This document shows positions 4,389 through 31,416 of a stretch of DNA of 64,000 bases, piece by piece. Every line of letters starts with the position of its first letter. Within the stretch, counting starts at the first letter, position 1. Source of the DNA: a bacterium. Its GTDB lineage: Bacteria > UBA8248. The translations under genes were made by a program, and so were the position numbers. The DNA lies in contig OZ251456.1 in the NCBI GenBank assembly GCA_965242545.1, forward strand, positions 21,146-85,145. The letters are read 5' to 3'. The notes beneath the pieces were generated by a model. The model was given only the letters and a program-made list of their open reading frames with translations. It made no database searches and was not told where the DNA came from.

Positions 4389-4399
4389 CGGACGGGGGA

Positions 4400-4570: not shown

Positions 4571-4612
4571 CGAAAAAAACGCAATCTCCCCCCTCACCGG
4601 CCGGAACTGATC

Positions 4613-7306: not shown

Positions 7307-7440
7307 GCGGCGCTCCCCGATGAAGCCCGAATCCGTAGCTCGGGGTTTTGTAGCATTCTTTCGCGCCGCCGCAAACGAAGGCGGGACTCGCGCGCCGGAG
7401 CCGCGAATCGGGACGGCTTCACTCCCGGAGGGGGCTGGCC

Positions 7441-8148
7441 GATCGGGGTGGGGAGGATGACCAGCGAGGTTCCGTAGGGGCGATCTCTCCTCGGGCTTGC
7501 CCCACGGTTCGCGAACCGCCCGTTTGGGTGGGAAGGCGATCTGGGAGAGGAGATGACCGCGATCGGAGCGGCGGGAGGAGCTGACCGATCGGGGCCGGGA
7601 GGATGGCCGCGATCGGGGCGGGGAGGCGATCCGGCCGATCGTGTCTTATTCAGAAGAAATTCCCCATCTTTCGGCGTTTTTCGTTTTGAATCAATCGGTT
7701 ATGCGTTCGCAAAAGCTGCGTGAATTCGCCTGAAAACGCCTTGAATTCGTTTTGAATTTGCTCGATGGTATTTGAATTGAAAGGTTTTCGGTTCGACGGA
7801 AAAAGACGCCCTCTTGATCGCCAATCGGGCGTGTTTCGGCTCGAATGGTACCTTTTTCGCTTCTTTTCGGGATACCGCAAATGCGGGCAAATGCGCGCGC
7901 CGCCGCGTCGCCGCCGACCCACAATCGGGGCGCATGTCCGCGCCCCCTACAATCGGACGCCACCCCACCGTGGGGCGGGCCCGGGAAGGAACCGCCCCTG
8001 CGAAACCCGTCGCGCCGCCGGGCGTCCCGCGAGGACAACCACAGGGGGTTGTCCCTACGGCAATCCGCATCGTCGGCCAATTCACGACGCGCCGCGTCGT
8101 CAACAACCCGCGATCGGGGCGCGTATATGGCGCCCTCGGCGTATTCCC
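7441..8148. repeat. left copy of a ~0.7-kb inverted repeat: 25-nt tandem GATCGGGGCGGGGAGG... units, an AT-rich ~250-bp core, and palindromic modules
   Basis: The reverse complement of 7650-7900 is ~90% identical to 30990-31245. The outer 7585-7650 matches the reverse complement of 31250-31320. The inner palindromic modules 7900-8148 match 30700-30980. Confidence 0.75.
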
Positions 8149-9543
8149 CTAGAACCGCGCGAGGAGGCTCACGCTCCCGCCGACCTCCCTGTTCTCGCCG
8201 GCGGCGGAGAAGTCCACGGAACCCCGAATCTCGTATTTTCCCTCTGCCCAGGCGTGAACGCCCCCGGCCCGCAGCCGAACCCGGGACGCCTCGGCCCTCG
8301 CCTTCAGCCGCTCGCCCGAGACCCTCGCGCTCGTCCCCGCCGAGAAGTCGTGCTCGAAGCCGGCCGCCCCGAACAGACGACCCGCGCCCGTCCGCTTCTC
8401 CACGCTCACCCCCGCCGCGCCCGTGAACATCTCGCCGTCCTCGATCGACACCCGCGAACCCACCGAGTCCGTGAAGTCGTCCAGCGAGACAGAGGAATGA
8501 ACCAGCCGGACGCGCGGCGTGAACGTCAGCCCCCCGGATTCGACCCGGCGCCCCAGCTCGACGCCCGCCGCCCAGCCCGAACCCGACGCCCCCGTCTCCA
8601 GCGCGCCCCGCGCGTCGGAGTCCAGATCCGCCTCATACGCGGTCGCCTCGAGCTGGGCGTCCAGATAGAAGCCCCCGCCAAGCCCCACGGCGGCCGAGAC
8701 GCCCACGCCGCTGCCGCTCACCTCGATCTCCCCGCTCCCGTCCACCTTCGCCGAGCCTCGCCCGTGACGCGCCGAGAAGCCGAGCAGGGCGTTCGCGCCC
8801 AGGCTCACGTCCACGCCCACCCGGACGCCGTAGCGGTCGTATTCATACGTCACGCCCGTCTCGGAGGCGTCCGCCTCCCAGTCGCCGCTCGCGCCCTCCG
8901 CCCGCGCCCAGACGCCGCGCGGCGACCGCGGCGCGCTCATCCGCTCCTCATGCGAGAGCATCCCGTTCATCCTCAGCAGAACCGAGGGCAGCGCCTCGTA
9001 GAGCTCGCAGCGGCGATCCCGCGCCCGGACACAGGAAAACACCGAGAGGTCGAGCGTCGAGAGGTCGAGCGGCTCGTCCTGGTCCTCCACCTCGAAGGTG
9101 GCGCGGTCGGTGATATTCCCCTCCTCGTCCACGAGCTCGACCTTCACGGTCTCGGCGCCCTCGACGGAGCCGCCCACCCGCTCCCGGATCGCCTCGCCCA
9201 CGTCCTCCTCATCGTCCCGCACCCGCACCGTGAGATCCACCGTCTCGCCCTTGATAAGCGGTTCGTCCGGATCGTTGTGCTCGGACCGCTTCACTGTTCC
9301 CGTTTCTCCGACCGTTATTTCCGTGGGGACGCACGACTCAACGGTGCCTATCACCTGGCCGTGAATGATGATGGTCGACCTGGGCTTCTGACGCCGCTGC
9401 CCTTCCGGGCAGTCCTCCTGCGCCCGCGCCTCCCCGGCGGAAAGCGTCAGCGCCGCCAGAAGCGCGGCGAGGAGAGGGATTCCTCGTCTCGCGCCTTTTG
9501 AACCGGGTAAAGAGCGGTCGTCTCCGTACAATCGCTTTCTCAT
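8149..9543 (-). CDS. autotransporter (type Va) outer-membrane protein: signal peptide, short passenger, C-terminal beta-barrel
   Basis: The signal peptide is MRKRL...LLAALLAALTLSAGEARAQE. The C-terminal ~300 aa are homologous to the C-terminus of the giant protein at 24042..30692 (YEALPSVLL..ERMSAPRSPRG...VRLVHSSVSLDDFTD...AGVSVEKRT...). It ends in ...LLARF, an aromatic terminal residue typical of OMPs. Confidence 0.7.
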   Translation of the reverse strand: MRKRLYGDDRSLPGSKGARRGIPLLAALLAALTLSAGEARAQEDCPEGQRRQKPRSTIIIHGQVIGTVESCVPTEITVGETGTVKRSEHNDPDEPLIKGETVDLTVRVRDDEEDVGEAIRERVGGSVEGAETVKVELVDEEGNITDRATFEVEDQDEPLDLSTLDLSVFSCVRARDRRCELYEALPSVLLRMNGMLSHEERMSAPRSPRGVWARAEGASGDWEADASETGVTYEYDRYGVRVGVDVSLGANALLGFSARHGRGSAKVDGSGEIEVSGSGVGVSAAVGLGGGFYLDAQLEATAYEADLDSDARGALETGASGSGWAAGVELGRRVESGGLTFTPRVRLVHSSVSLDDFTDSVGSRVSIEDGEMFTGAAGVSVEKRTGAGRLFGAAGFEHDFSAGTSARVSGERLKARAEASRVRLRAGGVHAWAEGKYEIRGSVDFSAAGENREVGGSVSLLARF

Positions 9544-9731
9544 CTGAATCGTCCTCTCGATGAAGTGAAAGAATCCCCTGTTGCTATCCGCCGCTTCTCG
9601 AATTCAGTCCGCCGGTTGTCGTCGGAAGACGACGAGGCGGAGGCGCGCGTTCGCCGAGAAGGCGGACTTCACGCCTTCGGGAGCGAGGAAGACGCCGCCG
9701 GAGGGCGCCCGCTCCCGGAAAACGGTTTCCT

Positions 9732-9801
9732 GTTGAGCGTTGAGCGTTGAGCGTTGAGCGTTGAGCGTTGAGCGTTGAGCGTTGAGCGTTGAGCGTTGAG
9801 C
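9732..9801. repeat. heptanucleotide tandem repeat (GTTGAGC)x10
   Basis: Perfect 70-nt array ~190 nt upstream of the autotransporter start at 9543. It lies between that gene and the cas9 remnant. Confidence 0.9.
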
Positions 9802-10138
9802 GCCTTTTCCCAGCCTAACCCCTCCCGCCTCGGGGCGCAAGGGGGCGTCGGGGACGCGGGGTTTCCGAACGCGGGAGAGAGGAAGATTCTCCCGCGCGCG
9901 GGCGACGGTTCAGGCATGAAAAGACGGGCCTCCTCGATGAGGGTCGAAAGCTCGCCGGCGGAAAGCGGAACCCGTCTCCGCGGCGAGTGAAAGCGACGAT
10001 TTGGACAAGGTTACGAAAATCCGCCTCGGGCGTCAATCCGCCCCCGGAAAAGCGGGCGGGACGGGGGAGGAACCCCGCGCCGTTCGGCGAACGGAGGCGG
10101 GGGCGTTCCGACGGCGGGGCGCATGTATGCGCCCCGTT

Positions 10139-10336
10139 TCGCGTCTGGCGGCGCGCCAGACGGGCGTCCCGCCTCTTGCGGTTCTTCGGCGTCTTGCTCT
10201 TCCTGTCCACCATCTCCTGAAACGCGCGGACGCCCATGGCTTCGAGGCGCGCCGGGTCGCCCGCCTCGTCCTCCTCGACGAGCGCCCAGCCGATGGAGTT
10301 GGGCCCCAGGTCGAGACCCAGCGTCATGCGAGGCAT
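10139..10336 (-). pseudogene. cas9: cas9 N-terminal remnant (RuvC-I motif plus the start of the arginine-rich bridge helix), truncated after 66 codons
   Basis: MPRMTLGLDLGPNSIGWALVEEDEAGDPARLEAMGVRAFQEMVDRKSKTPKNRKRRDARLARRQTR. The GLDLGxNSIGWA catalytic-Asp motif sits at residue 9, and the R-rich helix GVRxF...RRxARRxTR matches type II-C Cas9 N-termini. Homology stops exactly where the palindrome GGGGCGCATGTATGCGCCCC (10116-10135) begins; the rest of ORF 9815..10336 is repeat-derived nonsense. Confidence 0.55.
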
Positions 10337-10351
10337 ATCGAAAATCTCCCC

Positions 10352-10380
10352 TTGACAATTCGCGCGGGACAGCCTATCAT
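10352..10380 (+). promoter_or_regulatory. strong sigma70-type promoter TTGACA-N17-TATCAT
   Basis: -35 at 10352-10357 and -10 at 10375-10380, divergent from and 16 nt away from the cas9-remnant ATG. Confidence 0.45.
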
Positions 10381-10384
10381 CATA

Positions 10385-10513
10385 GCAGTTTTAGCTGATC
10401 GATGCCTGCTCGCTTTTCTCAACAAGAAGAGAATCTTCGCAGGCAATTCCCCGAACGGGGAAACGACTCCACCCTCGCGATGCCTTCGGGCCCCTCCGGG
10501 GGTGTATTTTTTT
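10385..10513 (+). ncRNA. candidate structured small RNA (~130 nt), possible tracrRNA or crRNA-like relic
   Basis: The predicted transcript starts AGCAGUUUUAGCUGAUCGAUGCCUGC.... It has nested stems (UGCCUGC/GCAGGCA enclosing UUCUC/GAGAA, then UUCCCCGAACGGGGAA) and ends in a GC hairpin (GCCUUCGGGCCCCUCCGGGGG) plus a U7 run at 10507-10513, which is an intrinsic terminator. No ORF is present. Confidence 0.35.
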
Positions 10514-10685
10514 GACCCCCTCCTCCGATTCCCTCCCGGTCAATCTCTCTCCGTCCGCGGGGGGACGCGGATGTGCGTCCCGCCTCTCCCGCGTGGTTGA
10601 AAACGGGCGGCCTTGCGGCCTACACTTGGACGCGCCGCCTCGCGGCTTCCCGGCAATCTATCGGCGACGAAAAGGAGGAGCGGAC

Positions 10686-11192
10686 ATGAGAAAATTCTTC
10701 GGTGGAGCGGCGGCGCTGCTGGCCGCCGCGGCCCTCGCTTTCGGCGCGGGGAGCGCCCTCGCCGCCGAGAGCGGCAGCTTCGAGTTCTACGAGAGCGCCG
10801 TCCACGACTATTCGACCATGAAGCACGCGGACGCGGACGTCACCGTCGGGCCCCTGCATGGAACGGCCACCATCGTCAAGAGCAGCGGCGGCCCCTTCAG
10901 GGAGGGCGCGAACTTCGGCGCGACGTGCCTCGTCTACGCGCGGAAGACGAAGAAGGGCGTCCACCTCGAGGCGCCCTGCTCGTTCACCGACGCGGCGGGC
11001 GACAAGCTCTGGCTGATCGCCCGAAGGAGCATGGGCGACATCCAGGTCGGCGGCGGGGGGCGGGGCGTCCAGCGCATCGTGGGCGGCACAGGCAAATACG
11101 CCGGGGTGACCGGAAACTGCCCCTACCGGACGGACTACCTGCCGGACAAGTGGCTCGTCTCCAAATCGACCTGCAGCTGGAGCAGGCCGTGA
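10686..11192 (+). CDS. secreted small Cys-containing protein, tandem paralog 1
   Basis: Signal peptide MRKFFGGAAALLAAAALAFGAGSALAAE. Four conserved Cys (ATCLVYARKT...APCSFTD...NCPYR...STCSW). SD GGAGGAG upstream. Confidence 0.6.
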   Translation: MRKFFGGAAALLAAAALAFGAGSALAAESGSFEFYESAVHDYSTMKHADADVTVGPLHGTATIVKSSGGPFREGANFGATCLVYARKTKKGVHLEAPCSFTDAAGDKLWLIARRSMGDIQVGGGGRGVQRIVGGTGKYAGVTGNCPYRTDYLPDKWLVSKSTCSWSRP

Positions 11193-11722
11193 TCGCGCGC
11201 GGAGCGAAGCGGAAGGCGGGGAAACCGCCCGGCGCGCTCCCGGCCGCCCTGGCGGTCGCCGCGGGCCTCGCCCTCGCGGCGGGAGCCGCCCTCGCCGCCG
11301 AAAGCGGGAGCTTCGAGCTCCACGAAACCTACGCTCCCGACCTGGCGACCATGAAGCACGCGGACGCCGAGATCACCGCGGGCTCCCTGCGCGGAGCGGC
11401 CGCCATCCTCGAAAGCGGCGGCGGCCCCTTCAGGGAGGGCGCGAACTTCGGCGCGGCGTGCCTCGTCTACGCGCGGAAGACGGAAAAGGGCGTCCGCCTC
11501 GAGGCGCCCTGCGCGCTCACCGACGCCTCGGGCGACAGGCTCTGGCTGCTGGTCGAAAAGCACGAGGGCGGCGTCCGGAACAACGGCGGGCGGGGCGTTC
11601 AGCGCATCGCGGGCGGCACCGGCAAATACGCCGGGGCGCGCGGAGAATGCGCCTATCGGTCGGAAACCCTGCCGAACGGACGCCTCGTCGTCCAATCGAC
11701 CTGCAGCTGGCGCAGGCCGTAA
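11189..11722 (+). CDS. secreted small Cys-containing protein, tandem paralog 2
   Basis: ~70% identical to paralog 1 (AACLVYARKTEKGVRLEAPCALTD...ECAYRSETLPNGRLVVQSTCSW). The GTG start overlaps the paralog-1 stop (GTGA). Confidence 0.55.
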   Translation: MIARGAKRKAGKPPGALPAALAVAAGLALAAGAALAAESGSFELHETYAPDLATMKHADAEITAGSLRGAAAILESGGGPFREGANFGAACLVYARKTEKGVRLEAPCALTDASGDRLWLLVEKHEGGVRNNGGRGVQRIAGGTGKYAGARGECAYRSETLPNGRLVVQSTCSWRRP

Positions 11723-11801
11723 GCCCCGGGCGCGCGGGCTTCGCCTTCCGCGGGGCTTCATTCTTCCCGCCGCCACGCTTTCGGAGAACGGGAGAAAAAG
11801 C

Positions 11802-13619
11802 GTGAAATTCCTGATGACGCCGCTGCTCGCCCTCCTCCTCGCGGCCGCGAACCCGGGCGGCGCGGCGGCGGCTCCCCCGTTGCGCGCCCTGCCTCCGGGA
11901 GCGGCCTACGGCGACTACGCCGTAGGGACGGTCACGGGCTTCGCCGTGGACAGGCATCAGCGCTTCGACCCGTGGAACGCCGCCTACGGCCGCCCCGAAT
12001 ACCGCGCCCTGCTGCGCCGGGTGGAGGCGTCGGGCCAGACCCGCGCGGTGGTGTTTCAGCTGTGGTATCCGGCTGCGCCGGACCCCGCGCGCGGGCGCGT
12101 CGCCGGGCCGCGCTCCCCCCTCCACGCGGCGAGCGGGCGGCGGGCGAAATTCTTCGACTTCTATTTTCGGGATCGCTCCCTGGCGGATCGCGTCGCCGCG
12201 GCCGCCCAGGTGGTGATGCCCCCGTTCATTCACCTTCGCGGCGGCGGAACCCTCGCCGAAGCGAAGGGCGCGGCGCGGCGGGACGCCCTCCGCGAGATTC
12301 GCCGGCGCATCCTCGACGCCCCGCTCGGGGCGTGGCTCCGCGCCCGGCCCGCCGAGGGGAGGTTTCCCCTCGTGGTTCTCGCCCACGGACTCGCCGGCAG
12401 CCACGGCATGTGGAGCTCCTTCGCCGAGTTTCTCGCCTCGCGCGGCTACGCGGTCGCGGCGCCCACCTTCGTCTCCGACGGCGGCCTGCCGCTCGCGTTC
12501 CACGATCCGGATTCGCCCTTCGCCGGGAGCGCCTCGCCCGATGAACTGAAGCGCGCCTACGCGCTGATGCTCGGCGAGGTCCGGGTCGTCCCCTACTTCT
12601 ACCGCCTCCTGTTCGGGCGCGAGGGCCGGGGCTTCGCGCCGCCGGCCGGCTTCGCGCCGCCGAAGGAGAGGGTCGTCCCCGGCGGCGTGGAGCGCGCCAC
12701 GACGATGATGCGCAACCTCTTTCGCCAGCGGGTGGCCGACCTGGCGCTGACGCTGCGAACCGCGCGGCTGCTCGGCGAGAAGAAGGAGACCTGCCGCGCC
12801 GCGCTCTCCGCCATGGGCGCGACCAGCGCGGCGCGCGGCCTGTGCGGCCTCCTGGCGGGGCGCATCAACGGCGCGCGGGCGGGCGTCGCCGGCCATTCGC
12901 TCGGCTCCATGACGGCGCAGCTCGCGGCGAATCACCTGCCGGGCGCGGCCGCGGCGCTCGGCTTCAACAACGCCCCGCCCTTCACCTGGACGCCGGAGGA
13001 GATGTTCGGCGCGGGCGAGACGGAGGACGGCGGCGAGACGCTGCCGGCGGGCAGCCGCAAGCCCCTGATGATCCTGATCGGCGACGAGGACGACTTCGTG
13101 CAGCGCATCTTCATCGGCCTCTTCCAGTCGGCGGTGAAGGCGGCCGGGGGCGACCCCGCCGCGGCCTTTCCGCTCGCCCCCGAGCGCGCCGCTCCCGATC
13201 GCGCGCGGAATCCCCAGCCGGTCGCGCTCAGCGCGTGGCGGCGCGCGCTCTCCGACCGCCTGCTGGTGATCGCGCGCGACACCGACCACTTCACGCTCGC
13301 GGAGGACTTCGCGCGGCTCTTCCCCTGGCCGGCGTTCCTGCGCGGGGAGCTTCCCTTCGGCCAGACCCCGGAGCGGACGCGCAAGCCGACGGGCGCGCGC
13401 GCCTTCGCCCCGCCGGGGGGCGCGGGGGAGCGCTACGTCCAGCCGGGCTGGATCGAAGTCCCCGGCGCGGGCCGGGCGTATCTGCCCCACGTGATCCGCG
13501 ACTGGTACGCGCGGGCGTGGTTCGACTGGCACCTCAAGGGAGACGGGAGCGCCCGCGAGCGGCTTCGGAGGCCCGACCCGTTCGGGGCCATGACCTCCGT
13601 CCGGCGGCGGATCCGCTGA
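11802..13619 (+). CDS. secreted alpha/beta hydrolase (lipase / PAF-acetylhydrolase-like)
   Basis: Signal peptide MKFLMTPLLALLLAAANPGGAAAA. Has a GHSLGS nucleophile elbow. GTG start with an upstream SD. Confidence 0.6.
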   Translation: MKFLMTPLLALLLAAANPGGAAAAPPLRALPPGAAYGDYAVGTVTGFAVDRHQRFDPWNAAYGRPEYRALLRRVEASGQTRAVVFQLWYPAAPDPARGRVAGPRSPLHAASGRRAKFFDFYFRDRSLADRVAAAAQVVMPPFIHLRGGGTLAEAKGAARRDALREIRRRILDAPLGAWLRARPAEGRFPLVVLAHGLAGSHGMWSSFAEFLASRGYAVAAPTFVSDGGLPLAFHDPDSPFAGSASPDELKRAYALMLGEVRVVPYFYRLLFGREGRGFAPPAGFAPPKERVVPGGVERATTMMRNLFRQRVADLALTLRTARLLGEKKETCRAALSAMGATSAARGLCGLLAGRINGARAGVAGHSLGSMTAQLAANHLPGAAAALGFNNAPPFTWTPEEMFGAGETEDGGETLPAGSRKPLMILIGDEDDFVQRIFIGLFQSAVKAAGGDPAAAFPLAPERAAPDRARNPQPVALSAWRRALSDRLLVIARDTDHFTLAEDFARLFPWPAFLRGELPFGQTPERTRKPTGARAFAPPGGAGERYVQPGWIEVPGAGRAYLPHVIRDWYARAWFDWHLKGDGSARERLRRPDPFGAMTSVRRRIR

Positions 13620-13638
13620 GCGGGGAGGCGCGCCGCGC

Positions 13639-15144: not shown

Positions 15145-15209
15145 CGGGATTTCCTCCTGGAATCGCCCGCCGGCGCCCGCGAGGCTCGCCGGCGCCGGGC
15201 GGACGCGGC

Positions 15210-15986
15210 CTAGTGGCGCAGAATCTGGTTCAGGAACGTCTTGGTCCGGTCGTGCTTCGGATTGATGAAGAACTGCTGGGGCTCGTTCTGCTCCACGATC
15301 TCGCCCTCGTCCATGAAGATCACCCGGTCGGCGACCTCGCGCGCGAAGCCCATCTCGTGGGTGACGCAGAGCATGGTCATGCCCGACTCGGCCAGGCCGA
15401 CCATCACCTCCAGCACCTCCTTGATCATCTCGGGATCGAGGGCGGAGGTGGGCTCGTCGAACAGCATGACGCGCGGGTCCATGCACAGGGCGCGTGCGAT
15501 GGCGACGCGCTGCTGCTGGCCGCCGGAGAGCTGGCCCGGGTACTTGTCCGCCTGCTCGGGTATCTTGACGCGGTTCAGATACCGCATGGCGGTCTCCTCG
15601 GCCTCCTTTTTCGGAACCTTCCGCACCCAGACGGGCGCCAGCGCGCAGTTCTCCAGAACCGTCAGGTGCGGAAACAGGTTGAAGCTCTGGAACACCATGC
15701 CGACCTCGGAGCGCACCTCGTCGATGTTTCTGAGGTCGTTGGTGAGCCGCACCCCGTTGACCATGATGTCGCCCTCCTGGTGCTCCTCCAGCCGGTTAAG
15801 GCACCGCACCAGCGTGGACTTGCCGGAGCCGGAGGGGCCGCAGATGACGATGCGCTCGCCCCGCGCCACCTGCAGGTTGATGTCCTTGAGAACGTGGAAG
15901 GCGCCGAACCACTTGTTGACGCCGCGCATCTCGACCGCCGGACTCTCCGCCTTCACCTCGCCGCCTCCTTTCGCCTCGCGGGTCAT
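15210..15986 (-). CDS. polar amino acid ABC transporter ATP-binding protein
   Basis: Walker [10 protein letters not shown], signature [15 protein letters not shown] and Walker [12 protein letters not shown]. The ATG overlaps the upstream permease stop (ATGA). Confidence 0.85.
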
Positions 15987-17107: not shown

Positions 17108-17111
17108 CGGA

Positions 17112-18290: not shown

Positions 18291-18430
18291 TGCGCCCGCC
18301 TCCGTCAGGGAAGCCCCCTTCCGCCCGAGCCGCGAGCGTCAAAAAAAGGGCGGGGCATTCCGGCTCGCGTCGTCATGCCCCGCCCCTCGAGCCTGTTCCG
18401 TGAAAGGAGGGCTCCCCGCTTCCCGAGCGG

Positions 18431-19447: not shown

Positions 19448-19756
19448 CTCTCCCTCTCCTCTCGATTGTGAGGCGCTGCGAACGGATTTGCGCGAATCCT
19501 CCCGTCGGGGAGGCGTGTCCGCGCTCTTCTCCCGACCCCGCGGCCGGAACAGGAAATTCCGGATCCTTCTCCATCTTCGGCCTTTGACGATGAAGTCGAT
19601 TCACTCTTATTCACGATGCGCGAAAATGTCAACAGGCGAACGGGGCGGGCGCGCCTCCGTCTCCCGTCCCGTCCCCGGTTTTCTTTCCCGAACGCCCCGT
19701 CGGTGGTATGAATGGTTCCCGTCTTCTGAGGAACCACTCGCGGATGAGGGCGCTTC

Positions 19757-22149: not shown

Positions 22150-22620
22150 ACCACCCCGCCTTTGGTCGCCGAACGGCGCGGGACGCATGTAGAAGAACGC
22201 CGCGGAGACGCCCCCGTGGCCGTCCCCTACAATGGAATATCGCCACCCTCGCCGTAGGGGGCGCATATATGCGCCCCGATTGTAGGGTTGGCGACGATGC
22301 GGATTGCCGTAGGGACAACCCCCTGTGGTTGTCCGTTGTCAACGGCGCGCGCCGGTCTGGTTTTCACCGCCGGGACGTTGCGCCCGTAGGTGAAGCGCCA
22401 AGGGGCGCTTCCCACACATACATGCGCCCCGGTTGTGGAATTGCCGACGATGCGGCGCGGACAACCACAGGGGGTTGTCCCTACGAAGGCGGAATCACCA
22501 CCGGCCCGCAGGGGTGGTTCCTTCCCGGGCCCGCCCCACGGTTCGCGGCGGCGCGCCCGCCCGTGTTCGCCGAACGGCGGGGGCATTGCCGTTCCGTCGG
22601 CGATTCGGTATGATCGCGCG
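22150..22620. repeat. palindromic intergenic repeat cluster (modules A-E)
   Basis: Contains GGGGCGCATATATGCGCCCC, GGACAACC-N-GGTTGTCCCTACG (twice), and CACCGCCGGGA-N-CCGTAGGTGAAGCGCCAAGGGGCGCTTCCCACACATA. Confidence 0.7.
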
Positions 22621-22658
22621 GCGATAATGAGGATCAACCGAATGGAGACGCGCCGGAC

Positions 22659-23138
22659 ATGACGGACTACGAGAAGCTCAACCTTGTCATCGCCTTTCTC
22701 GCGCTGATCGCCTCCTACGGCGGTCTGGCGCTGCTCTACTACGGCATCCGCCAGATGGATCGGGGGAGCGCGCGGCGGGCGGCGGAGTCGAAGCGCCAGC
22801 ACGAGGAGACGATGACCGCGCTCGCCGAGGAGCGGGAGGAGGCCCGGAGCCGGCACGAGGAGGCGATGCGGAAGATCGCCGAGGATCAGGAGGCGTCGCG
22901 GAAGCGGCACGAGGAGGCGATGGCCGCGCTCGCCGAGGAGCGGGAAGCCTCCCGGAAGCGGCATGACGAGGTGATGGCCGAATCGGAGAAGCGGCACGAG
23001 GAGGCCATGCGCAAGCACGACGAGGCCATGCGGAAGCACGACGAGGGGGCGGAGGAATCCAAACGCCGGCACGAGGAGAGCATGGCCGCGCTCACGGAGC
23101 TCATCAAGCGGACGGGAAACCCGCAGAAGCCCTCGTAG
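22659..23138 (+). CDS. small membrane-anchored coiled-coil protein with RHEEAM heptad-like repeats
   Basis: An N-terminal TM helix (LVIAFLALIASYGGLALLYY) followed by ~7 degenerate copies of (K/R)RHEEAM(R/A). Confidence 0.45.
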   Translation: MTDYEKLNLVIAFLALIASYGGLALLYYGIRQMDRGSARRAAESKRQHEETMTALAEEREEARSRHEEAMRKIAEDQEASRKRHEEAMAALAEEREASRKRHDEVMAESEKRHEEAMRKHDEAMRKHDEGAEESKRRHEESMAALTELIKRTGNPQKPS

Positions 23139-23139
23139 G

Positions 23140-23760
23140 GACACAACCCCCCGTGGTTGTCCTTCATCATGTTCGTATCCCGCAGATACCCGAACCGCCC
23201 GCCTTTGGTCACCGAACGACGCGGGACGCATGTATGCGTCCCCTACGGCGAGGGTGGCGATATTCCTTTGCAGGTGACGCGCGGGAGCGCGTCCATACAT
23301 GCGCCCCGTCGTGAATTGGCCGCCGGCGCGGATTGCCGTAGGGACAACCCCCCCGTGGTTGCCCGTTGTCAACGATCCGGGCGGTTCCGCATCGGAAACG
23401 CCCCGCAATTCACGAACCGTGGGGCGGCCCCGGGGAGGGGTTGCCCCTGCGCAAAAACAAAACCGCCGCCCTGCCTTGTTCACCGCCGGGATATTTCACC
23501 CGTAGGTGAAGCGCCAAGGGGCGCTTCCCACACATATATGCGCCCCGCATGTGGAATTGGCGATGACGCGGCGCGGACAACCACGGGGGGTTGTCCCTAC
23601 GGAACCGACAAACCCGCATCACCCCGAACGGCGCGGCACCTGCGCAAAACAAAATCGTCGTCCGTCCGTGGTCGCCGGATGGATATTGCGCCCGTCCGCG
23701 CGGGACGCATATATGCGTCCCCTACAAAACCGTTGCCCGGCGCGGGTGTGAATTTTCATC
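23140..23760. repeat. palindromic intergenic repeat cluster
   Basis: GGGACGCATGTATGCGTCCC, GGGACAACC-N-GGTTGCCC, GGGGCGCATATATGCGCCCC and GGACGCATATATGCGTCCCCTAC, the same modules as at 22.2 kb. Confidence 0.7.
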
Positions 23761-23923
23761 TTGCGCGGGGGTTGAACTTCGCCAACTCTTTTTGTTACAA
23801 TGGCGGTCATCATCGGTTTTGACGCGGGACTCGAACGAAACGGGAATCGACCGCTTACAAAGGGGGCAGCGCACATGAGCATGTTCAGCTTGTCCGCGCC
23901 TTGGGATTTGGGGCATACTGGCG

Positions 23924-24023
23924 CCGACTCACCGACTCACCGACTCACCGACTCACCGACTCACCGACTCACCGACTCACCGACTCACCGACTCACCGAC
24001 TCACCGACTCACCGACTCACCGA
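23924..24023. repeat. octanucleotide tandem repeat (CCGACTCA)x12.5
   Basis: Perfect 100-nt array immediately 5-prime of the giant autotransporter gene's ATG at 24042. It lies within the TTG-initiated ORF 23901. Confidence 0.9.
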
Positions 24024-24041
24024 CATGAGAAGGGGCGCGCG

Positions 24042-27000
24042 ATGAGAACGCCGGACGGCGCGGGACGCAACTATGCGTCCCCTACAAAATCGTCGCCGCC
24101 CTGTTTCCGTAGGGGGCGCGGACAACCACGGGGGGTTGTCCCTACGGATATAAAACCGGCATGGGGGCGGCTGGCGGGGCTTCTCGCCGGCTTGGCGCTG
24201 GCGGGGCTGCTGCTGGCGCCGGGGGAGGCGCGGGCGCAAGCCCTTCTATGCGGGAACTCGAACAACGTCCGCTTGGACTGCCCGAATCGGGATTATCCCG
24301 ACGGCATCGTCTATGGCATCGCGGGCGACAGCAGCAATATCAGCCACGGCATCCCCCAGACGCTCAACCTCCTGGGCCACAGTTCCGGGCCGATCACGCT
24401 CACGGCCGGCGCCCGGGGGGTCGCCTTCGGCGCGCGAGCCAGCGGAGGGGCAGGCCTCACGTTGAACATCGGCGGCGCGACGGGCGGGACCGCCCACGTC
24501 GTCAGATTCGTCCAGGGGACGAACTCGGTCTCCGGCATCGACCGGAACAACGGCATCTATGTTTGGCGTACGGCCAACAACACCGGCGCGAGCACAACGC
24601 TGAACGTGAAAGCCGGTGTGACCATCGGCACGATGGCCACGCCGATGAAGCAGCACGGCATCTTCCTCCGCCCGCACGCCGACCGCCCCTCCGCTGGCCG
24701 GGGCAGCGCCGGCCTCACCCTCACCAGCGCGGCGACCATCCATGCCGCCCGGCAGGGCATTCGGATAGTCCGGCAGACCGGGGGCACCAACGACGCGACC
24801 ACCGTCACCAACACCGGCGCCATCCACTCGGGCGTCGGCAACGCCGCCGCCACCGGCAGCTACGTCGACCGGCCGCACGGCATCTACGCGCTGCATGGGG
24901 GGACGCAGAGGACCGGCTCGCTGACCGTCACCAACTCGGGCGACATCACGGTGGGGGGCGCCTACACCGGCATCCTGATGAACTACTGGGGCGCCGGCGC
25001 CCTGAGCCTCGACAACCGCGGGGACATCGCCGCGGCGACGGGGCAGACGGCGAAGCAGGGCATCCAGTTCAACTACAAGTACTGGGACAACCAGAGCGCC
25101 CAGGCCATCACGCTCACGAACTCCGGCGACATCACGGCGTCCGAGTTCGGCATCCGGCTCACGAAGCTCTCGGGCGGCGCGGTCGAGCTCACGAACAGCG
25201 GCGCCATCACGGTGACGGGCGACGCGGCGCAACACGCGGGGCACGCCATCTATCTGGCGGAGGGCGTCACCTTCGGCGAGGGCAGAACCTACGCCGCCAA
25301 CGGCGGCGCCCTCACGGTCGACAACAGCGGTGTCCTCAGCTCGAAGAACCACGCCCTCTACGTCTACCTGGCCACGGCGGACGACGACGTCGAGCTCGAG
25401 AACAGCGGCGACGTCGTCTCGGAGGAGGGGGACGGCATCCGGATCGAGCGGGTCGTCGAGGGCGACGTCGCGGTCGAGAACAGCGGGAGCGTCTCGGGGA
25501 AGGGCCACGGCATTTACGTGGGCCAGGCGGCGCGGATCGACTTCGAGCAGTCGGGGTCGGGGACGATCAGGGGCCGGACGGGGGTCTATCTCGGTGTCGC
25601 GAAGGAGAGCGCGTCGGGCGACTCGCGCAGCACGGACAGCGGCGGGGATCACATCCCCGCGATCGACGTGACCTGGTCGGGCGGGAGCGTGGCGCGGGGG
25701 CCGGCGACGACGGGCGCCCGCTTCACGGCGACCACCTGGCTGGAGACGTCCGTCGCCGACCGGGAGGCGACGGTGGTGAAGTCGGTGGAGGATTCGCTGC
25801 GCTGGGGGGCGGCGGCGGGTCTGGAGGCGCGCGTCCTGTCCTGGCGGGCGGTGATGGAGCAGGTGGCGGCGGGCGACGATCCGGGCGTGATAGCGAACGC
25901 GGCGGCGCAGACGACGCTGCTGGCGACGAGCGGGGCCGGTTCGCGCCGGGCGACCATCCTGGCGCAGGTCCGGGCGATGCTGGGGAACGATGACCTCTCG
26001 GTGGGGACGGATCTCCTCACCGCCATCGACTCGACGGCGACGAGCGTGAGCGACCTGAGCGACGCGGAGATCGCGACCTATCTGACCCAGGACGCCCCGG
26101 ACATCCGGATCATTCTGCGGAACATCCTGCGTTACGGCCTCTCGGCCGCCGAGAAGGCGGTTCTGGCGGCGGTCGTGGCGGGGGACGGCACGGCGCTCAC
26201 CACCGCGCTGGCCGTCACGACGCCGGCCGCCTTCTCCTCCGCCTACAAGACGGCGGTGACCGGGCTGCTGTCCCGCTACAACCTGGACGACGTCAGCGTC
26301 AGCATGACGGGCGGCGAGATCGCCTCGCGCGGCGACGGCATCCGGGCCTATTACGCGACGGCGAACGACAGCAACGGGAGCGTGGAGATCACCATCGGCG
26401 CGAACGCGGCCGTGGAGGGAGACGTCCACGGGATTCACGTTTCGGGCGGCGGGGTGAACGCCTCCAGCGTGAAGCAGCAGCGCGTCACCGTGAACGGGAG
26501 GGTGACGGGCGGGACGGGGGCGGGCGTTCACCTGGTGGGCGGGGGGACGGTGACGGTGGGCGCGGGCGGGCGCGTGGGCGCGACCTCGGGCACGGCCATC
26601 GAGACCTCGGACGGCGGCGATCTGACGGCGGCCATCTCCGGGCGGGTGGAGGGGGACATCCGGGCGGCGGGGACGCTGACGCTCACCTCGGCGGCGGGGA
26701 GCGTGATCACGGGGACGGTTCACGACCCCTCGGGTTCGCTGTCGGTGGCGGGGAGCATCGGGCGGATCGTCTATACGAGCGGGGGGACGGTGACGGTGGC
26801 GGCGGCGGGCCGGCTCACGGGGGTGTCGGGCGAGGCGGTTCGCAGCGACTCAGGCGATTTGAGCGTGACCATCGCCGGGCGGGCGACGGGCGACGTTGAG
26901 GCGGGGGGCAGCGGGAACCTGACCCTGAGCCTCACCGGGAGCGGGCGGCTGGACGGCGACGCCGAGGCGGGGGGGACGCTGACGCTGACGGCGGCGGCGG

Positions 27001-30000
27001 GGACGGTGATCACGGGGACGGTTCACGACCCTTCGAGCGCGTTCACGACGGTGTCGGGGAGCATCGGGCGGATCGTCTATACGAGCGGGGGGACGGTGAC
27101 GGTGGCCGCGGCGGGCCGGCTCACGGGGGCGTCGGGCGAGGCGGTTCGCAGCGACGCGGGCAACCTGAGCGTGACCATCGCCGGGCGGGCGACGGGCGAC
27201 GTTGAGGCGGGGGGCAGCGGGAACCTGACCCTGAGCCTCACCGGGAGCGGGCGGCTGGACGGCGACGCCGAGGCGGGGGGGACGCTGACGCTGACGGCGG
27301 CGGCGGGAACGGTGATCACGGGGACGGTTCACGACCCTTCGAGCGCGTTCTCCACGGTGTCGGGGAGCATCGGGCGGATTCTCTACACGAACGGCGGGAC
27401 GGTGGCGGTGGCCGCGGCGGGCGCTTTGACGGGGGTTTCGGGCGAGGCGGTTCGCAGCGACGCGGGCAACCTGAACGTGGACGTCTCGGGCCGGGCGGGG
27501 GGCGACGTCATCGCCAACGGCGGGGGCGATCTGGACCTGGACGTGCTGGGTTCGGGGCGGGTCGAGGGTGACGTCAAGACCTCGGGCGGGGGCGACCTGG
27601 ACGTCTCCCTGGCCGGCACCGGGCGGATTGACGGCGACGTGCGCGCCCAGGGCGGGGGCGACCTGACGCTCGCCTCGGCGGCGAATACCGTCATCACGGG
27701 CACGGCCTACGACCCGACGGGCGCGCTGTCGGTGGCGGGGAGCGTCGGACGGATTCTCTATACGAACGGCGGGGACGTGACGGTCGCATCGGGGGGCGCC
27801 CTGACGGGCATCGATGGCGTGGCCGTCCGCAGCGCCGCGGGGAACCTGGACGCCGACGTCGCCGGGCGCGCGGGAGGCGACGTCATCGCCAACGGCGGGG
27901 GCGATCTGGACGTGGACGTCTCGGGTACGGTCGCGGGCGACGTTCTGGCGAACGGCGGCGGCGACCTGACGGCGGACCTCACCGGGACCGGGCGGGTGGA
28001 AGGCGATATCCGGGCCTCGGGCGGGGGGACGCTGACGCTGACGGCGGCGGCGGGGACGGTCATCACGGGGACGGTTTACAGTCCCGCGAGTCCGTTCACG
28101 GTGTCGGGGAGCATCGGGCGGATTGTTTATACGAACGGCGGGACGGCGACGGTGGCCGCGGCGGGCGCCCTGACGGGGGTCTCGGGCGAGGCGGTTCGCA
28201 GCGAGGCGGGGGACTTGAGCGTGACCGTCGCCGGGCGCGCGGGAGGCGCCATCCTGGCGAACGGCGGGGGCGACCTGACGACGGACGTCTCGGGGACGGT
28301 CGAGGGCGACGTTATCGCCTCGGGCGGGGGCGACGTGGAGGTGGACGTCACGGCCGCCGGGCGGATCGAGGGAGACGTTCGCGCCGAGGGCGGCGGGATG
28401 CTGACGCTGACGGCGGCGGCGGGGAGCGTCATCACGGGGACGGTCTACGGCCGCCCCGCGGGCGCGTTCACGGTGGAGGGCAGCATTGGACGGCTGGTCT
28501 ACGCGAGCGGGGGCGAGGTGACGGTCGCCGAGGGCGGCGTCCTGACGGGGGTGGATACCGGGGACGGCATGGAGGTGATTCGGAGCGAGGCGGGGGATTT
28601 GAGCGTCACGGTGGCCGGGCGGATCGGGGGCGGCATCCGCTCCGCGGGCGGCCTGGACGTCACGATAACGAGCGCGGCGCCGGGCGACCTCCGCGCGGGC
28701 GGCGACATGACGGCGGATATATCCGGGACGGTCGAGGGCGACCTGGACGCCGGCGGCGATTTGACGGCGACGATCACCGGGGAAGTCGAGGGCGACCTCG
28801 CCGCCGGGGGCGACATGACGGCGGAGATTTCGGGAACGGTCGAGGGGAGCGTCCGCGCGGGCGGGGCCGTGACGGCGGAGCTCTCCGGGCGGATCGAGGG
28901 CGACCTGGACGCCGGCGGGGCGCTGGCGCTGACGGCGACGTCGGGGAGCGTCATCGCGGGCACGCTTCGCGGCCCCGGGGGCGCGTTCACGGTGAGGGGG
29001 AGCATCGGGCGGATCCTTTACCGGGGGGCGGGGACGGTGACCGTGCCCGAGGGCGGCGTTCTGACGGGCGTGGATACCGGGGACGGCATGGAGGTGATTC
29101 GGGGCGAGGCGGGGGACTTGAGCGTGGTGGTGGCCGGGACGGTGGGGGGCGGCATCCGCTCCGCGGGCGGCCTGGACGTCACGATAACGAGCATGGTGCC
29201 GGGCGACGTTCGCGCGGGCGGCGACGTGACGGCGGACGTCTCCGGGACGCTGACCGGCGACCTGGACGCCGGGGGCGACATGACGGCGGATATCACCGGG
29301 ACGCTGACGGGCGACGTGGTCGCCGGGGGTGATTTGACGGCGGATATTTCGGGGACGGTTGACGGGAGCGTCCGCTCCGGGGGCGACCTCACGGCGGTGA
29401 TCACCGGGATGGTGACGGGCGACGTGGAGGGACCGGGCGCGGGCGATCACACCGTGACGGTCTCGGCGGGGGCGGTGGTGACGGGAACGGTTCACCTGGC
29501 GGCCTCCACCGTGCGGGTGGACGGGACGGTGGGCGGGGTGCGCTTCCGGCGGGGCGGAACCCTCACCATCGGGCCGAACGGGCGGATACTGGCGGGCGAA
29601 GGGGTGGCGATACGCAACGACCGGGGCGCGCTGACGGTGACGATAGAGGCGGCCCCGGGCGAGCGGCCCGAGGAGAGCGTCGCCCGGGTGGAGGGGACGG
29701 TGGTGGACCCGGGCGGGAACGAGCGGGCGCGGACGCTGACCCTCCTCTCGACGGACGGGCAGACGGCCGAGCTGAGCCTGGACCTGGAGGGGCGGATCAG
29801 GAGCGGCCTGCCCCCGCGCGCGAAGGTGTATGAGGCGCTGCCCTCGGTTCTGCTGGGCATGAGCCGCCCGCTCTCCTACGGGGAGCGGCTGAGCGCGCCG
29901 CGCTCGCCCCGGGGCGCCTGGGCGCGGGTCGAGGGCGCGAGCGCCAGCTGGAAGGCGGTCTCCTCCGCCTCGGACGCGGAATACGACATGAAGCGCCACG

Positions 30001-30692
30001 GCGTCCGCGCGGGCGTGGACCTGCGCGCGGGGGCGGACTTCCTGCTCGGCTTCTCGGTTCATCACGTTCGGGGCTCGGCGAACATGGGCGCGGACGACGA
30101 GGGCGGGGAGCTCGAGGCGCGGGGCAGCGGGCTGGGGCTTCACGCGGCGTGGGCCTTCGGCGGGGGCTTCTACGCGGCGGGGCAGTTCGAGGCGACCTCC
30201 TACGAGGCGGACATGGAGTCGGACCGGCGGGGGGAGCTGGAGACGGGCGCCCGCGCCCTGGGCCTGACGGTCGGGGCGGAGCTGGGGCGCCGCGTCGCCT
30301 CCGGGGGGGTGACCATCGCCCCGCGCGTCCGGCTGGTTCACGCCTCGGTCTCGATGGACGACTTCACCGACGAGGCGGGCTCCGAGGTCTCGGTCAAGGA
30401 CGCCGCCAGCTTCACGGGCGCGGCGGGCGTGAGCGTGGAGAAGCGCACCCGCGCCGGGCGCGCGTTCGTCTCGGCGGACTTCGAGCGGGAGTTCATCGAG
30501 GAGACCCGGGTGAAGCTCGACCGCGACGCCCTGAAGGCCAAGGCGTCGGAGAGCCGGCTTCGCCTGCGCGCGGGCGGCCTCCACGCCTGGGGCGGGGGCA
30601 GATACGCCGTGCGCGGCGCCCTGGACTTCTCCGCCGCCGGCGATGAAAGCTACGAGGTCGGCGGCAGCCTCGCCTTCCGCGTGAGGTTCTAG
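24042..30692 (+). CDS. giant autotransporter adhesin (~2,216 aa) with a repetitive passenger domain and a C-terminal beta-barrel
   Basis: Signal peptide ...WGRLAGLLAGLALAGLLLAPGEARA-QA. Passenger domain of Gly/Thr/Val-rich beta-helix-like repeats, including ~101-aa modules repeated near-identically. The C-terminal 300 aa are homologous to the 8149..9543 protein and end in ...FRVRF. Start codon uncertain: ATG 24042 reads through a palindromic repeat module. Confidence 0.7.
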   Translation: MRTPDGAGRNYASPTKSSPPCFRRGRGQPRGVVPTDIKPAWGRLAGLLAGLALAGLLLAPGEARAQALLCGNSNNVRLDCPNRDYPDGIVYGIAGDSSNISHGIPQTLNLLGHSSGPITLTAGARGVAFGARASGGAGLTLNIGGATGGTAHVVRFVQGTNSVSGIDRNNGIYVWRTANNTGASTTLNVKAGVTIGTMATPMKQHGIFLRPHADRPSAGRGSAGLTLTSAATIHAARQGIRIVRQTGGTNDATTVTNTGAIHSGVGNAAATGSYVDRPHGIYALHGGTQRTGSLTVTNSGDITVGGAYTGILMNYWGAGALSLDNRGDIAAATGQTAKQGIQFNYKYWDNQSAQAITLTNSGDITASEFGIRLTKLSGGAVELTNSGAITVTGDAAQHAGHAIYLAEGVTFGEGRTYAANGGALTVDNSGVLSSKNHALYVYLATADDDVELENSGDVVSEEGDGIRIERVVEGDVAVENSGSVSGKGHGIYVGQAARIDFEQSGSGTIRGRTGVYLGVAKESASGDSRSTDSGGDHIPAIDVTWSGGSVARGPATTGARFTATTWLETSVADREATVVKSVEDSLRWGAAAGLEARVLSWRAVMEQVAAGDDPGVIANAAAQTTLLATSGAGSRRATILAQVRAMLGNDDLSVGTDLLTAIDSTATSVSDLSDAEIATYLTQDAPDIRIILRNILRYGLSAAEKAVLAAVVAGDGTALTTALAVTTPAAFSSAYKTAVTGLLSRYNLDDVSVSMTGGEIASRGDGIRAYYATANDSNGSVEITIGANAAVEGDVHGIHVSGGGVNASSVKQQRVTVNGRVTGGTGAGVHLVGGGTVTVGAGGRVGATSGTAIETSDGGDLTAAISGRVEGDIRAAGTLTLTSAAGSVITGTVHDPSGSLSVAGSIGRIVYTSGGTVTVAAAGRLTGVSGEAVRSDSGDLSVTIAGRATGDVEAGGSGNLTLSLTGSGRLDGDAEAGGTLTLTAAAGTVITGTVHDPSSAFTTVSGSIGRIVYTSGGTVTVAAAGRLTGASGEAVRSDAGNLSVTIAGRATGDVEAGGSGNLTLSLTGSGRLDGDAEAGGTLTLTAAAGTVITGTVHDPSSAFSTVSGSIGRILYTNGGTVAVAAAGALTGVSGEAVRSDAGNLNVDVSGRAGGDVIANGGGDLDLDVLGSGRVEGDVKTSGGGDLDVSLAGTGRIDGDVRAQGGGDLTLASAANTVITGTAYDPTGALSVAGSVGRILYTNGGDVTVASGGALTGIDGVAVRSAAGNLDADVAGRAGGDVIANGGGDLDVDVSGTVAGDVLANGGGDLTADLTGTGRVEGDIRASGGGTLTLTAAAGTVITGTVYSPASPFTVSGSIGRIVYTNGGTATVAAAGALTGVSGEAVRSEAGDLSVTVAGRAGGAILANGGGDLTTDVSGTVEGDVIASGGGDVEVDVTAAGRIEGDVRAEGGGMLTLTAAAGSVITGTVYGRPAGAFTVEGSIGRLVYASGGEVTVAEGGVLTGVDTGDGMEVIRSEAGDLSVTVAGRIGGGIRSAGGLDVTITSAAPGDLRAGGDMTADISGTVEGDLDAGGDLTATITGEVEGDLAAGGDMTAEISGTVEGSVRAGGAVTAELSGRIEGDLDAGGALALTATSGSVIAGTLRGPGGAFTVRGSIGRILYRGAGTVTVPEGGVLTGVDTGDGMEVIRGEAGDLSVVVAGTVGGGIRSAGGLDVTITSMVPGDVRAGGDVTADVSGTLTGDLDAGGDMTADITGTLTGDVVAGGDLTADISGTVDGSVRSGGDLTAVITGMVTGDVEGPGAGDHTVTVSAGAVVTGTVHLAASTVRVDGTVGGVRFRRGGTLTIGPNGRILAGEGVAIRNDRGALTVTIEAAPGERPEESVARVEGTVVDPGGNERARTLTLLSTDGQTAELSLDLEGRIRSGLPPRAKVYEALPSVLLGMSRPLSYGERLSAPRSPRGAWARVEGASASWKAVSSASDAEYDMKRHGVRAGVDLRAGADFLLGFSVHHVRGSANMGADDEGGELEARGSGLGLHAAWAFGGGFYAAGQFEATSYEADMESDRRGELETGARALGLTVGAELGRRVASGGVTIAPRVRLVHASVSMDDFTDEAGSEVSVKDAASFTGAAGVSVEKRTRAGRAFVSADFEREFIEETRVKLDRDALKAKASESRLRLRAGGLHAWGGGRYAVRGALDFSAAGDESYEVGGSLAFRVRF

Positions 30693-30699
30693 CCGCGGG

Positions 30700-31410
30700 A
30701 CGCGAAAACGCGAATCGACCGGGCGCGGGGAACGGCGAATCACGCCCCCGCGCCCGGTTTTTTGCGCGGCAAAACGGGACGCATATATGCGTCCCCTACG
30801 GGCCGGGGGTGGCGTCATCCAATTGTAGGGGGCGCGGACACCCGCCCCGCACCTGCGCGTCACCTACCCCCTACGCAAAACCGCCGCCCTGTTTCCGTAG
30901 GGGGCGCATATATGCGCCCCGATTGTGGGACGGCGACGACGCGGCGCGGACAACCACGGGGGGTTGTCCCTACGGAAACAAAATTCCCCGCGCGCATTTG
31001 CCCGCATTTGCCGTCGCCCGAAAAGAAGCGAAAAAGGTACCATTCGAGCTGAAACGCGCCCGATTCCCGATCAAAAAGGCGTCTTTTTCCGTCGAACCGA
31101 AAATCTTTCAATTCAAATACAATCGAGCGAATTCAAAACGAATTCAAGGCGTTTTCAGGCGAATTGACGCAGCTTTCAGGAACGCATAACCGCTTGATTC
31201 AAAACGAAAAACGCCGAAACGCGGGGAATTTTATCTGGATAAGACCCGATCGGGCGGATCGCCCTCTCGCCCCGATCCCGGCCATTCTCCCGGCCCCGAT
31301 CTGCCATTCCGCCGCGCCGGGGTCGGCTCATCCTCTCCCCGCTCCGATCGGCCCCTCCACCGGGAGTGGTTTCCCCCTCGCCCCCGAAGCCCGGATCCCG
31401 ACCATCGCTC
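30700..31410. repeat. right copy of the ~0.7-kb inverted repeat (see 7441..8148)
   Basis: 30990-31245 is ~90% identical to the reverse complement of 7650-7900. It includes palindromic modules and 25-nt GATCGGGGC... units. Confidence 0.75.
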
Positions 31411-31416
31411 CCCGGC

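Follow-up and report, generated by a model that had tools for sequence, protein, structure and literature searches.

What are the two inverted, non-coding sequences that bracket a block of about 24 kb in the 64-kb stretch of contig OZ251456.1 analysed here (hereafter the window), and why do they resemble each other more closely than the two autotransporter genes beside which they lie? Our results suggest that they are probably copies of a non-coding repeat of ~0.45-0.55 kb, dispersed at low copy number and restricted to one lineage, which resides in mosaics of repetitive extragenic palindromes (REPs) and whose copies are younger than the autotransporter duplication. The feature is real but fairly ordinary, a new lineage-restricted member of the bacterial intergenic mosaic repeats. 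It is neither a 1.5-kb inverted duplication nor the boundary of an accessory island, and nothing shows a function for the repeat.

The two copies in the window are referred to as left (winL) and right (winR), and contigs of relatives carry numbers with the prefix L. These contigs were reached through proteins: the small autotransporter led to nine homologues, all in metagenome assemblies of the European Nucleotide Archive (ENA), plus cluster members, and L009 was reached through a spurious open reading frame (ORF) lying over its core copy. Orthologues of the small autotransporter lie at L004, L011 and L012, those of the large autotransporter at L006, L013 and L014, and a third autotransporter paralogue at L005 and L010, the latter on a circular contig of 3.03 Mb. 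The parts of the inverted pair and the genes that adjoin them are as follows.

7390..7634, minus strand: left outer arm of ~24-nt GC-rich units, each with GATC/GGCC palindromes; the top GATC cluster of the window
7635..7898, minus strand: left AT-rich core, 46.6% GC; nhmmer profile match with E 1e-94
7901..7950, minus strand: GTAG-headed REP module (GTAGGGGGCGC..GCGCCCC plus tail) that abuts the left core and is 90% complementary to 30897-30946
7951..8148, no strand assigned: left REP mosaic, from the core to the stop codon of the small autotransporter, with matches at 22288-22334, 22507-22542 and 23301-23364; not collinear with the right side
8149..9543, minus strand: small autotransporter of 464 aa; PF03797, E 5e-29
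24042..30692, plus strand: large autotransporter; PF03797 (E 7e-26) in the last 500 aa, beta-helix repeats
30693..30896, no strand assigned: right REP mosaic downstream of the large autotransporter; weak sub-threshold noise only in Rfam
30897..30989, plus strand: right REP module, second REP (GGACAACC..GGTTGTCC) and linker, the first REP being the same module as 7901-7950
30990..31253, plus strand: right AT-rich core, 47.7% GC; first 81 nt 92.6% identical to L006
31254..31414, plus strand: right outer arm made up of GATC-rich units (second GATC cluster in the window), which extends to the stop codon (31417) of the enoyl-CoA hydratase gene

A repeat search of the window returned ungapped inverted arms at 7569-7899 and 30989-31319 (331 nt, 89% identity), and BLAST matched 7543-7899 with 31339-30989 (358 nt, 87%). 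Both matches contain the 264-nt AT-rich core: positions 7635-7898, reverse-complemented, are 90.9% identical to 30990-31253 with zero gaps, and the GC content of the core (46.6-47.7%) compares with 67-70% in its surroundings. One 33-mer of the core occurs exactly twice in the window, with zero occurrences expected, and the longest identical run common to the inverted pair is 36 nt. Only the core, ~90 nt of the GATC-rich units next to it and one 50-nt REP are collinear between the copies. A sequence-only reading of this DNA had described two 0.7-kb copies at 85-90% identity. The inverted repeat exists, at 331-358 nt and 87-89%, but the whole intervals (7441-8148 against 30700-31410) reach 68% in a global alignment when every column is counted, 147 of them being gaps. 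The 250-290 nt nearest the stop codons, which hold different assortments of REP palindromes, are 52% identical between the copies and the GATC part 62%, both with gaps, and the latter is the least conserved part of the repeat unit. Read along the adjacent autotransporter, the order of parts is a run of palindromes, a specific palindrome module, the AT-rich core and the GC-rich GATC units. The core and palindromes that had been assigned to each copy are present in both, but the accompanying 25-nt tandem unit was detected by Tandem Repeats Finder in the left copy only, with a length of 24 nt (7547-7630, 3.3 copies, 73% matches). The observation was right in kind and too wide in extent. The left outer arm has its edge 35-85 nt short of the start of the monooxygenase gene and contains a REP-like insertion (~7464-7532) that matches 23409-23454. 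Assembly collapse as the source of the repeat is excluded, because the two core copies differ at 9% of positions and independent assemblies hold orthologous copies.

Both autotransporter genes are transcribed outward, with their stop codons (8149 and 30692) facing the repeats, and both encode a PF03797 beta-domain. As had been noted from the sequence, the beta-barrel domains are homologous (8149-9000 against 30692-29829: 74% nucleotide identity by BLAST, 59% amino acid identity), and the non-coding core, at 90.9%, is better conserved than the coding barrels. However, the two similarities differ in age, because the synonymous divergence (dS) of the barrels is 0.47 (dN 0.28; Nei-Gojobori) whereas the core copies have diverged by 0.097. 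The barrel paralogues are 73-77% identical in nucleotides in every genome (73.5% for the window pair), and orthologues are 91-96% identical. Judging from these values, the barrel paralogy predates the split from the relatives, and the gene duplication is several times as old as the last ancestor that the core copies share. The single inverted duplication of ~1.5 kb that had been proposed does not agree with a barrel dS of 0.47 and a paralogy from before the split, next to cores that differ by only 9%.

The comparison of orthologues bears on the apparent conservation of the non-coding part. The core of winL is 82.1% identical to that of L011 over 264 nt (Jukes-Cantor distance about 0.205), which is no better conserved than the small autotransporter between window and L011 (dS 0.17-0.21) or the non-coding DNA upstream of this gene (84% identity to L011); the large autotransporter gives a dS of 0.13-0.155 between window and L013/L006 (both by Nei-Gojobori). 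Since the core diverges between orthologues at the rate of synonymous sites and of other non-coding DNA, selection is not needed to account for a non-coding part that is better conserved than the coding part, and the functional conservation that had been suspected finds no support here. The value of this result is mostly interpretive: the contrast vanishes when orthologues are compared, with young copies, old paralogues and drift at the synonymous rate.

A profile of the core (nhmmer) recovered only five copies among the window and the contigs of relatives, namely winL, winR, L009, L011 and a partial copy in L006. They occupy at least three types of locus: the flank of the small autotransporter, the flank of the large autotransporter and the region upstream of mnmE. 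In L009, REPs, core (4310-4573) and GATC units lie between divergent mnmE-mnmG and a gene with a Tat signal, with no autotransporter, and BLAST aligned L009 4309-4735 with window positions 30989-31414 at 87.5% identity. In L011, the core (2027-2290) is found 3' of the orthologue of the small autotransporter; past the core, synteny ends and the genes have no relation to those of the window. In L006, the large-autotransporter orthologue is followed by the same REPs and then by the core, inside which the contig ends. L006 and L013 are 94.5% identical across the large autotransporter and the first REP and then split, L006 continuing into the core and L013 into the 3' end of rmuC without a core. 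L013 shares the first REP of 30897-30989 and diverges exactly at the start of the second; this breakpoint at a REP boundary bears on the possibility of REP-based exchange. Because the far flank differs too (rmuC rather than enoyl-CoA hydratase), L013 represents a junction left by a rearrangement rather than an empty site. Downstream of the third paralogue there are REPs but no core. The suggestion that the conserved non-coding piece is an element in its own right is borne out by its occurrence without an autotransporter in L009 and by its variable presence between L006 and L013.

An exact core 20-mer yielded only three chance matches of 20-22 nt in public genomes, a weak search for relatives in that the 20-mer spans a position variable in L009. 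Conserved core 22-26-mers had no match in two scans of Joint Genome Institute (JGI) metagenomes, and core sequences had none in two scans of viral collections or among plasmids (blastn). Exact look-ups of two proteins of the window returned no match, and MnmG of L009 is no more than 51% identical to any protein of the plasmid collection. Matches to the repeat family are confined to a single high-GC lineage that is uncultured and poorly sampled. The repeat explains why short-read contigs of relatives end at these spots, and the REP-rich autotransporter flanks are places at which gene order differs between close strains.

Over the 264 nt of the core, identity is 92.0% between winL and L009 and 93.9% between winR and L009, so that these three copies differ from each other by 6-9%. 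Among the informative sites of the four full copies, six group winL with L011 and winR with L009, as opposed to two and one for the alternative groupings, and private changes number 31 in L011 against 7, 3 and 5 in the other three. These site patterns fit the tree (L011,(winL,(winR,L009))). With the root on the long L011 branch, the element would have been present at the small-autotransporter locus before the genomes split, and the other copies would have arisen later from a left-type copy. A proposal of concerted evolution based on two sites in the first 81 nt of the core was superseded by this four-copy analysis.

The palindromic modules are GTAG-headed REPs of several types (at least four). 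The window contains ~25 of them in 8 clusters, all located in the first 31 kb (4440-4510, 7927-8060, 10116, 10562, 22258-22460, 23141-23702, 24062-24148 and 30776-30985) and none in 31.4-64 kb; GC content is ~70% in the former part vs 60-65% in the latter. They are imperfect palindromes of 20-40 nt with hairpin potential, such as GGGGCGCATATATGCGCCCC and the second REP of the right copy, and bear an unpaired GTAG (CTAC) tag at one end (CCGTAGGGGGCGC.., CCGTAGGGACAACC.., CCGTAGGTGAAGCGCC..). The module that adjoins the core at 7901-7950 is also found next to the core in L009 and L006. GTAG-tagged REPs have been defined, and their clustering downstream of genes described (PMC3733652, PMC2817692). 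The modules of the window share with these REPs and with bacterial interspersed mosaic elements (BIMEs) the 20-40-nt hairpins, the GTAG/CTAC head, the existence of several types in both orientations, the location mostly in clusters downstream of genes and the fast turnover between relatives, and the core is invariably set among REPs. What sets the repeat apart is that neither its 264-nt AT-rich core nor its 24-nt GATC units are REP palindromes, and that few copies were seen. No gene resembling a REP-associated tyrosine transposase (RAYT) was found in the 64-kb window.

The repeat unit consists of a GTAG-headed REP hairpin, the 264-nt AT-rich core and a short array of ~24-nt GATC/GGCC units. 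We propose that it is by chance that two of its copies occupy the REP-rich 3' flanks of autotransporter paralogues whose divergence is ancient, and that these copies are alike because their shared ancestor is far more recent than that of the genes. Such a recent ancestor could reflect either the copying of an element of the left-locus type to other loci or ectopic conversion between copies, and the spread may have relied on a REP-associated transposase acting in trans or on ectopic recombination at REPs. The element presumably has no sequence-specific product and is probably selfish or neutral. As a by-product, the inverted pair might allow rare RecA-dependent inversion of the 23-kb interval. 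It is formally the substrate for inversion that had been pointed out, and its identical runs of up to 36 nt would be enough for occasional homologous inversion of ~23 kb.

Several observations weigh against this account. The five copies, one of them partial, come from an uncounted number of genomes. No terminal inverted repeats common to all copies were found: L009 has at its ends an 18-nt pair that is 78% complementary, which is not reproduced in the others. A target-site duplication and a clean empty site were looked for and none was found, and transposition is thus not demonstrated. For three of the four full copies, the gene directly downstream is co-directional and the spacer before it holds no other AT-rich DNA, which is compatible with a promoter role, and the 11-nt phasing of AA/TT described below, stronger than in shuffles, could stem from selection on DNA shape rather than from repeat ancestry. 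Finally, winL and L011 share the REP insertion in the GATC region, which winR and L009 do not have, so that the preferred rooting needs a loss of that unit; such a loss is plausible because the number of units varies among copies. The alternative rooting would imply that the core evolved 4-5-fold more slowly in the lineage of the window, i.e. constraint or conversion.

In all four full core copies, AA/TT recurs with a period of 11.0 nt and a power of 2.0-2.5. Dinucleotide-preserving shuffles have a best-period power of 0.95±0.4, and 1-9 of 500 shuffles reach the value of the core; the two cores of the window are the strongest windows of AA/TT periodicity in the 64 kb. The base autocorrelation of the core peaks at lags of 10, 20-21, 31 and 41. 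The core looks like a decayed array of units of ~10.5-11 nt, or one helical turn, and it is probably intrinsically curved as predicted from these phased A-tracts. Phased A-tract, intrinsically curved DNA is known upstream of bacterial promoters and in regions bound by nucleoid proteins. The core resembles such DNA in having AA/TT runs once per helical turn over ~24 turns; it differs in that its period is perhaps the trace of a decayed tandem repeat.

This phasing and the position upstream of co-directional genes make it conceivable, although rather unlikely, that the core is a functional module at the DNA level, which is the main rival reading. It could be either intrinsically curved DNA that seeds the assembly of a nucleoid protein or a portable promoter or upstream (UP) region, whose similarity is kept by selection and in which the GATC/CCTCC units would form a structured leader. 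That the period persists in the diverged L011 copy, that the element is the only AT-rich DNA upstream of the co-directional gene in winL, L009 and L011, and that winL, winR and L009 have so few private changes compared with L011 are what such a module would lead us to expect. However, none of the three copies examined contains a sigma-70-like promoter, the gene next to the right copy is convergent, so that its 3' end is what the copy looks onto, orthologous copies diverge at the synonymous rate, and descent from a short tandem array explains the periodicity equally well (lags 10, 21, 31 and 41). If the phasing or the upstream position were to prove functional, the element would illustrate on a small scale what a portable regulatory module looks like. 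We give still less credit to a mobile DNA-architecture cassette, in which ~24 turns of phased A-tracts and GATC hairpins would serve as promoter or insulator of the outer gene and the pair would flip the 23-kb block; in that event, the flipped block would have surface autotransporters at both ends, each with a repeat-tract switch. A product encoded by the element is more doubtful again. A small RNA made from the core or the GATC arm on the strand opposite the autotransporters, for example a protein sponge with GGA hairpin loops, would be in line with the 10-12 GGA per ~200 nt (6.5-8 in shuffles), several of which are in predicted loops such as GGCC-GGGAGGAU-GGCC, and with a small conserved hairpin with one compensatory change at the junction of core and arm. 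Yet the GGA excess is only about 1.3-2.7 standard deviations, the arm is the part with the lowest conservation, and no consensus promoter and no consistent terminator were seen in three copies examined. Fold stability on both strands relative to shuffles gave z-scores from -0.55 to +0.9, the RNAalifold consensus of the four copies is penalised for covariation (positive term), one of the 72-82 predicted pairs being compensatory, and Rfam was empty both for the window at the gathering score and for core and arm at E≤5. The idea of a non-coding RNA in the AT-rich core, for which a covariation analysis had been suggested, is left without support from covariation, folding or Rfam, and we regard the small RNA as highly improbable. 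The least credible product, hardly worth entertaining, is a small basic protein of ~63 aa: in both copies a reading frame crosses the core uninterrupted and reaches the same stop codon, but 16 nucleotide differences result in 10 amino acid changes, so that substitutions are essentially unconstrained, the TTG start is missing in L006, and among 5.8 billion proteins nothing matches except a spurious ORF that overlies a further copy of the element.

The two remaining explanations concern the pair as a whole, and both appear very improbable. One is a single inverted segmental duplication of the C-terminus of the autotransporter together with its 3' flank, the flank having been kept by purifying selection or gene conversion. 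The copies do have the same orientation relative to the homologous barrels, and conversion is feasible between tracts that are 90% identical with identical runs of this length. Under such a duplication gene and flank should be collinear and coeval, but the 250-290 nt between gene and core are not collinear, the barrels are far more diverged than the cores, and winL keeps six states shared with L011 and not with winR; moreover, the L009 copy has no autotransporter and the L013 autotransporter orthologue no core. The other takes the arms for the termini of a mobile unit, composite or invertible, with the 24-kb block as its cargo. The arms are inverted with their outer ends outward, and synteny with relatives breaks at the arms. 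Nevertheless, Pfam scans over all ORFs of the window supported by third-position GC (GC3) found no integrase, transposase, recombinase or invertase, and there is no tRNA in the 64 kb, so that a site-specific invertible segment would lack its recombinase; the interior has the GC content of the left flank, a solitary copy exists elsewhere (L009), and no target duplication was seen.

Other candidates for the core were tried and rejected. A terminator hairpin was suggested by an apparently covarying pair in three copies, which is broken in L011. A GC-skew minimum near 25 kb, together with mnmE/mnmG and the GATC cluster, brought a replication origin to mind, but the skew follows the G-rich passenger domain and the gene strand, only one weak DnaA-box-like 9-mer is present, and the element occurs in several copies. 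An iteron origin or plasmid-type centromere was considered from five loose (C/T)(G/A)A(A/T)TTCA(A/C) motifs, which are irregularly spaced and two of which L011 does not preserve; neither a rep or par gene near the core nor a plasmid match was found.

Among known repeats, Correia, ERIC and RUP are small non-autonomous bacterial repeats similar to miniature inverted-repeat transposable elements (MITEs). Like these, the element is short (~0.5 kb), non-coding and intergenic, occurs at several unrelated loci and varies between strains, and it breaks short-read contigs. Unlike these, it yielded no conserved terminal inverted repeats or target duplications and has no known parent insertion sequence, and its base composition is 20 points below that of the genome. 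Rhizobium-specific intergenic mosaic elements are composite intergenic repeats. With these and with the mosaic intergenic regions of Neisseria the element shares the interleaving of REP-type palindromes with other repeat families; there is no sequence relationship, however, and those mosaics are shorter and far more numerous. The Neisseria regions are mentioned in PMC3733652.

The left and right copies are bounded on the outside by the following genes.

6173..7357, minus strand: luciferase-like monooxygenase (PF00296; start taken from the sequence), left outside neighbour, co-directional with the left element
31417..32193, minus strand: enoyl-CoA hydratase (PF00378, ECH_1; E 2e-60), right outside neighbour, convergent with the right element

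Between the copies lie genes for a Cas9 N-terminal remnant, two small secreted paralogues, a hydrolase, a Na:alanine symporter, an amino-acid ATP-binding cassette (ABC) system, a major facilitator superfamily (MFS) transporter, a protein with an alginate-lyase domain and a coiled-coil repeat protein, and the atp operon is located just outside (34-39.7 kb). The 24-kb stretch had been taken for an accessory segment. With its transporters and hydrolases, no mobility gene or tRNA, the GC content of the left flank and the atp operon outside, nothing marks the interior as accessory, mobile or special. The cas9 remnant that had been recognised is confirmed: aa 5-66 of the ORF at 9815-10336 (minus strand) match Cas9 N-termini. 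The fragment itself (10136-10336, minus strand) takes in the RuvC-I motif plus the beginning of the bridge helix (E 1.5e-9 against Cas9 chains of the PDB) and stops at a REP palindrome, and no further cas gene or array is nearby. The thought that the core might be a CRISPR leader or tracrRNA, prompted by this remnant, was dismissed, with unsuitable periods and Rfam silent. At ~10683-11192 and ~11240-11722 (plus strand), tandem paralogous genes encode small secreted proteins with a signal peptide followed by AESGSFE...CSW(S/R)RP and no Pfam match. A gene for a small coiled-coil protein with RHEEAM-type repeats (22614-23138; tandem periods of 54 and 108 nt) has inverted REP clusters on either side (22207-22278 vs 23222-23293). 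In the window this gene lies just upstream of the large autotransporter, and in a relative (L013 9196-9567) it lies 4.5 kb downstream of the large-autotransporter orthologue.

Perfect simple-sequence repeats are found ~190-260 nt upstream of the autotransporter starts, at similar positions and with units that differ between paralogues: (GTTGAGC)x10 for the small autotransporter (window 9732-9802), (CCGACTCA)x12.6 for the large autotransporter (window 23924-24024) and (AACTTCCC)x19 for the third paralogue in a relative (L010 9688-9839). The short-read contigs L004, L005, L011 and L012 of relatives start inside such tracts. By analogy, these tracts are candidates for phase variation of surface proteins through repeat length; the 7-8-nt units upstream of the autotransporters resemble the promoter repeats that underlie phase variation of the Haemophilus hmw adhesins (PMC8262952). 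They are arguably the more interesting biology of this interval than the AT-rich repeat.

The start of the large autotransporter is uncertain, its long ORF opening at 23901. If translation starts at the ATG at 24042, two REP palindromes (24062-24148) lie inside the ORF. An ATG further upstream (23876) has a G-rich stretch resembling a ribosome-binding site; it is out of frame, which one extra 8-nt unit would correct. The passenger of the large autotransporter contains tandem repeats of 306-369 nt and 54-108 nt (26639-28552 and 28682-29428) and presents weak bactofilin-like beta-helix matches, and its orthologues in relatives vary greatly in length (fragments of 589-1012 aa). Near one of these orthologues, L013 encodes an extra autotransporter with a GDSL-lipase passenger (6954-8822) that has no counterpart in the window.

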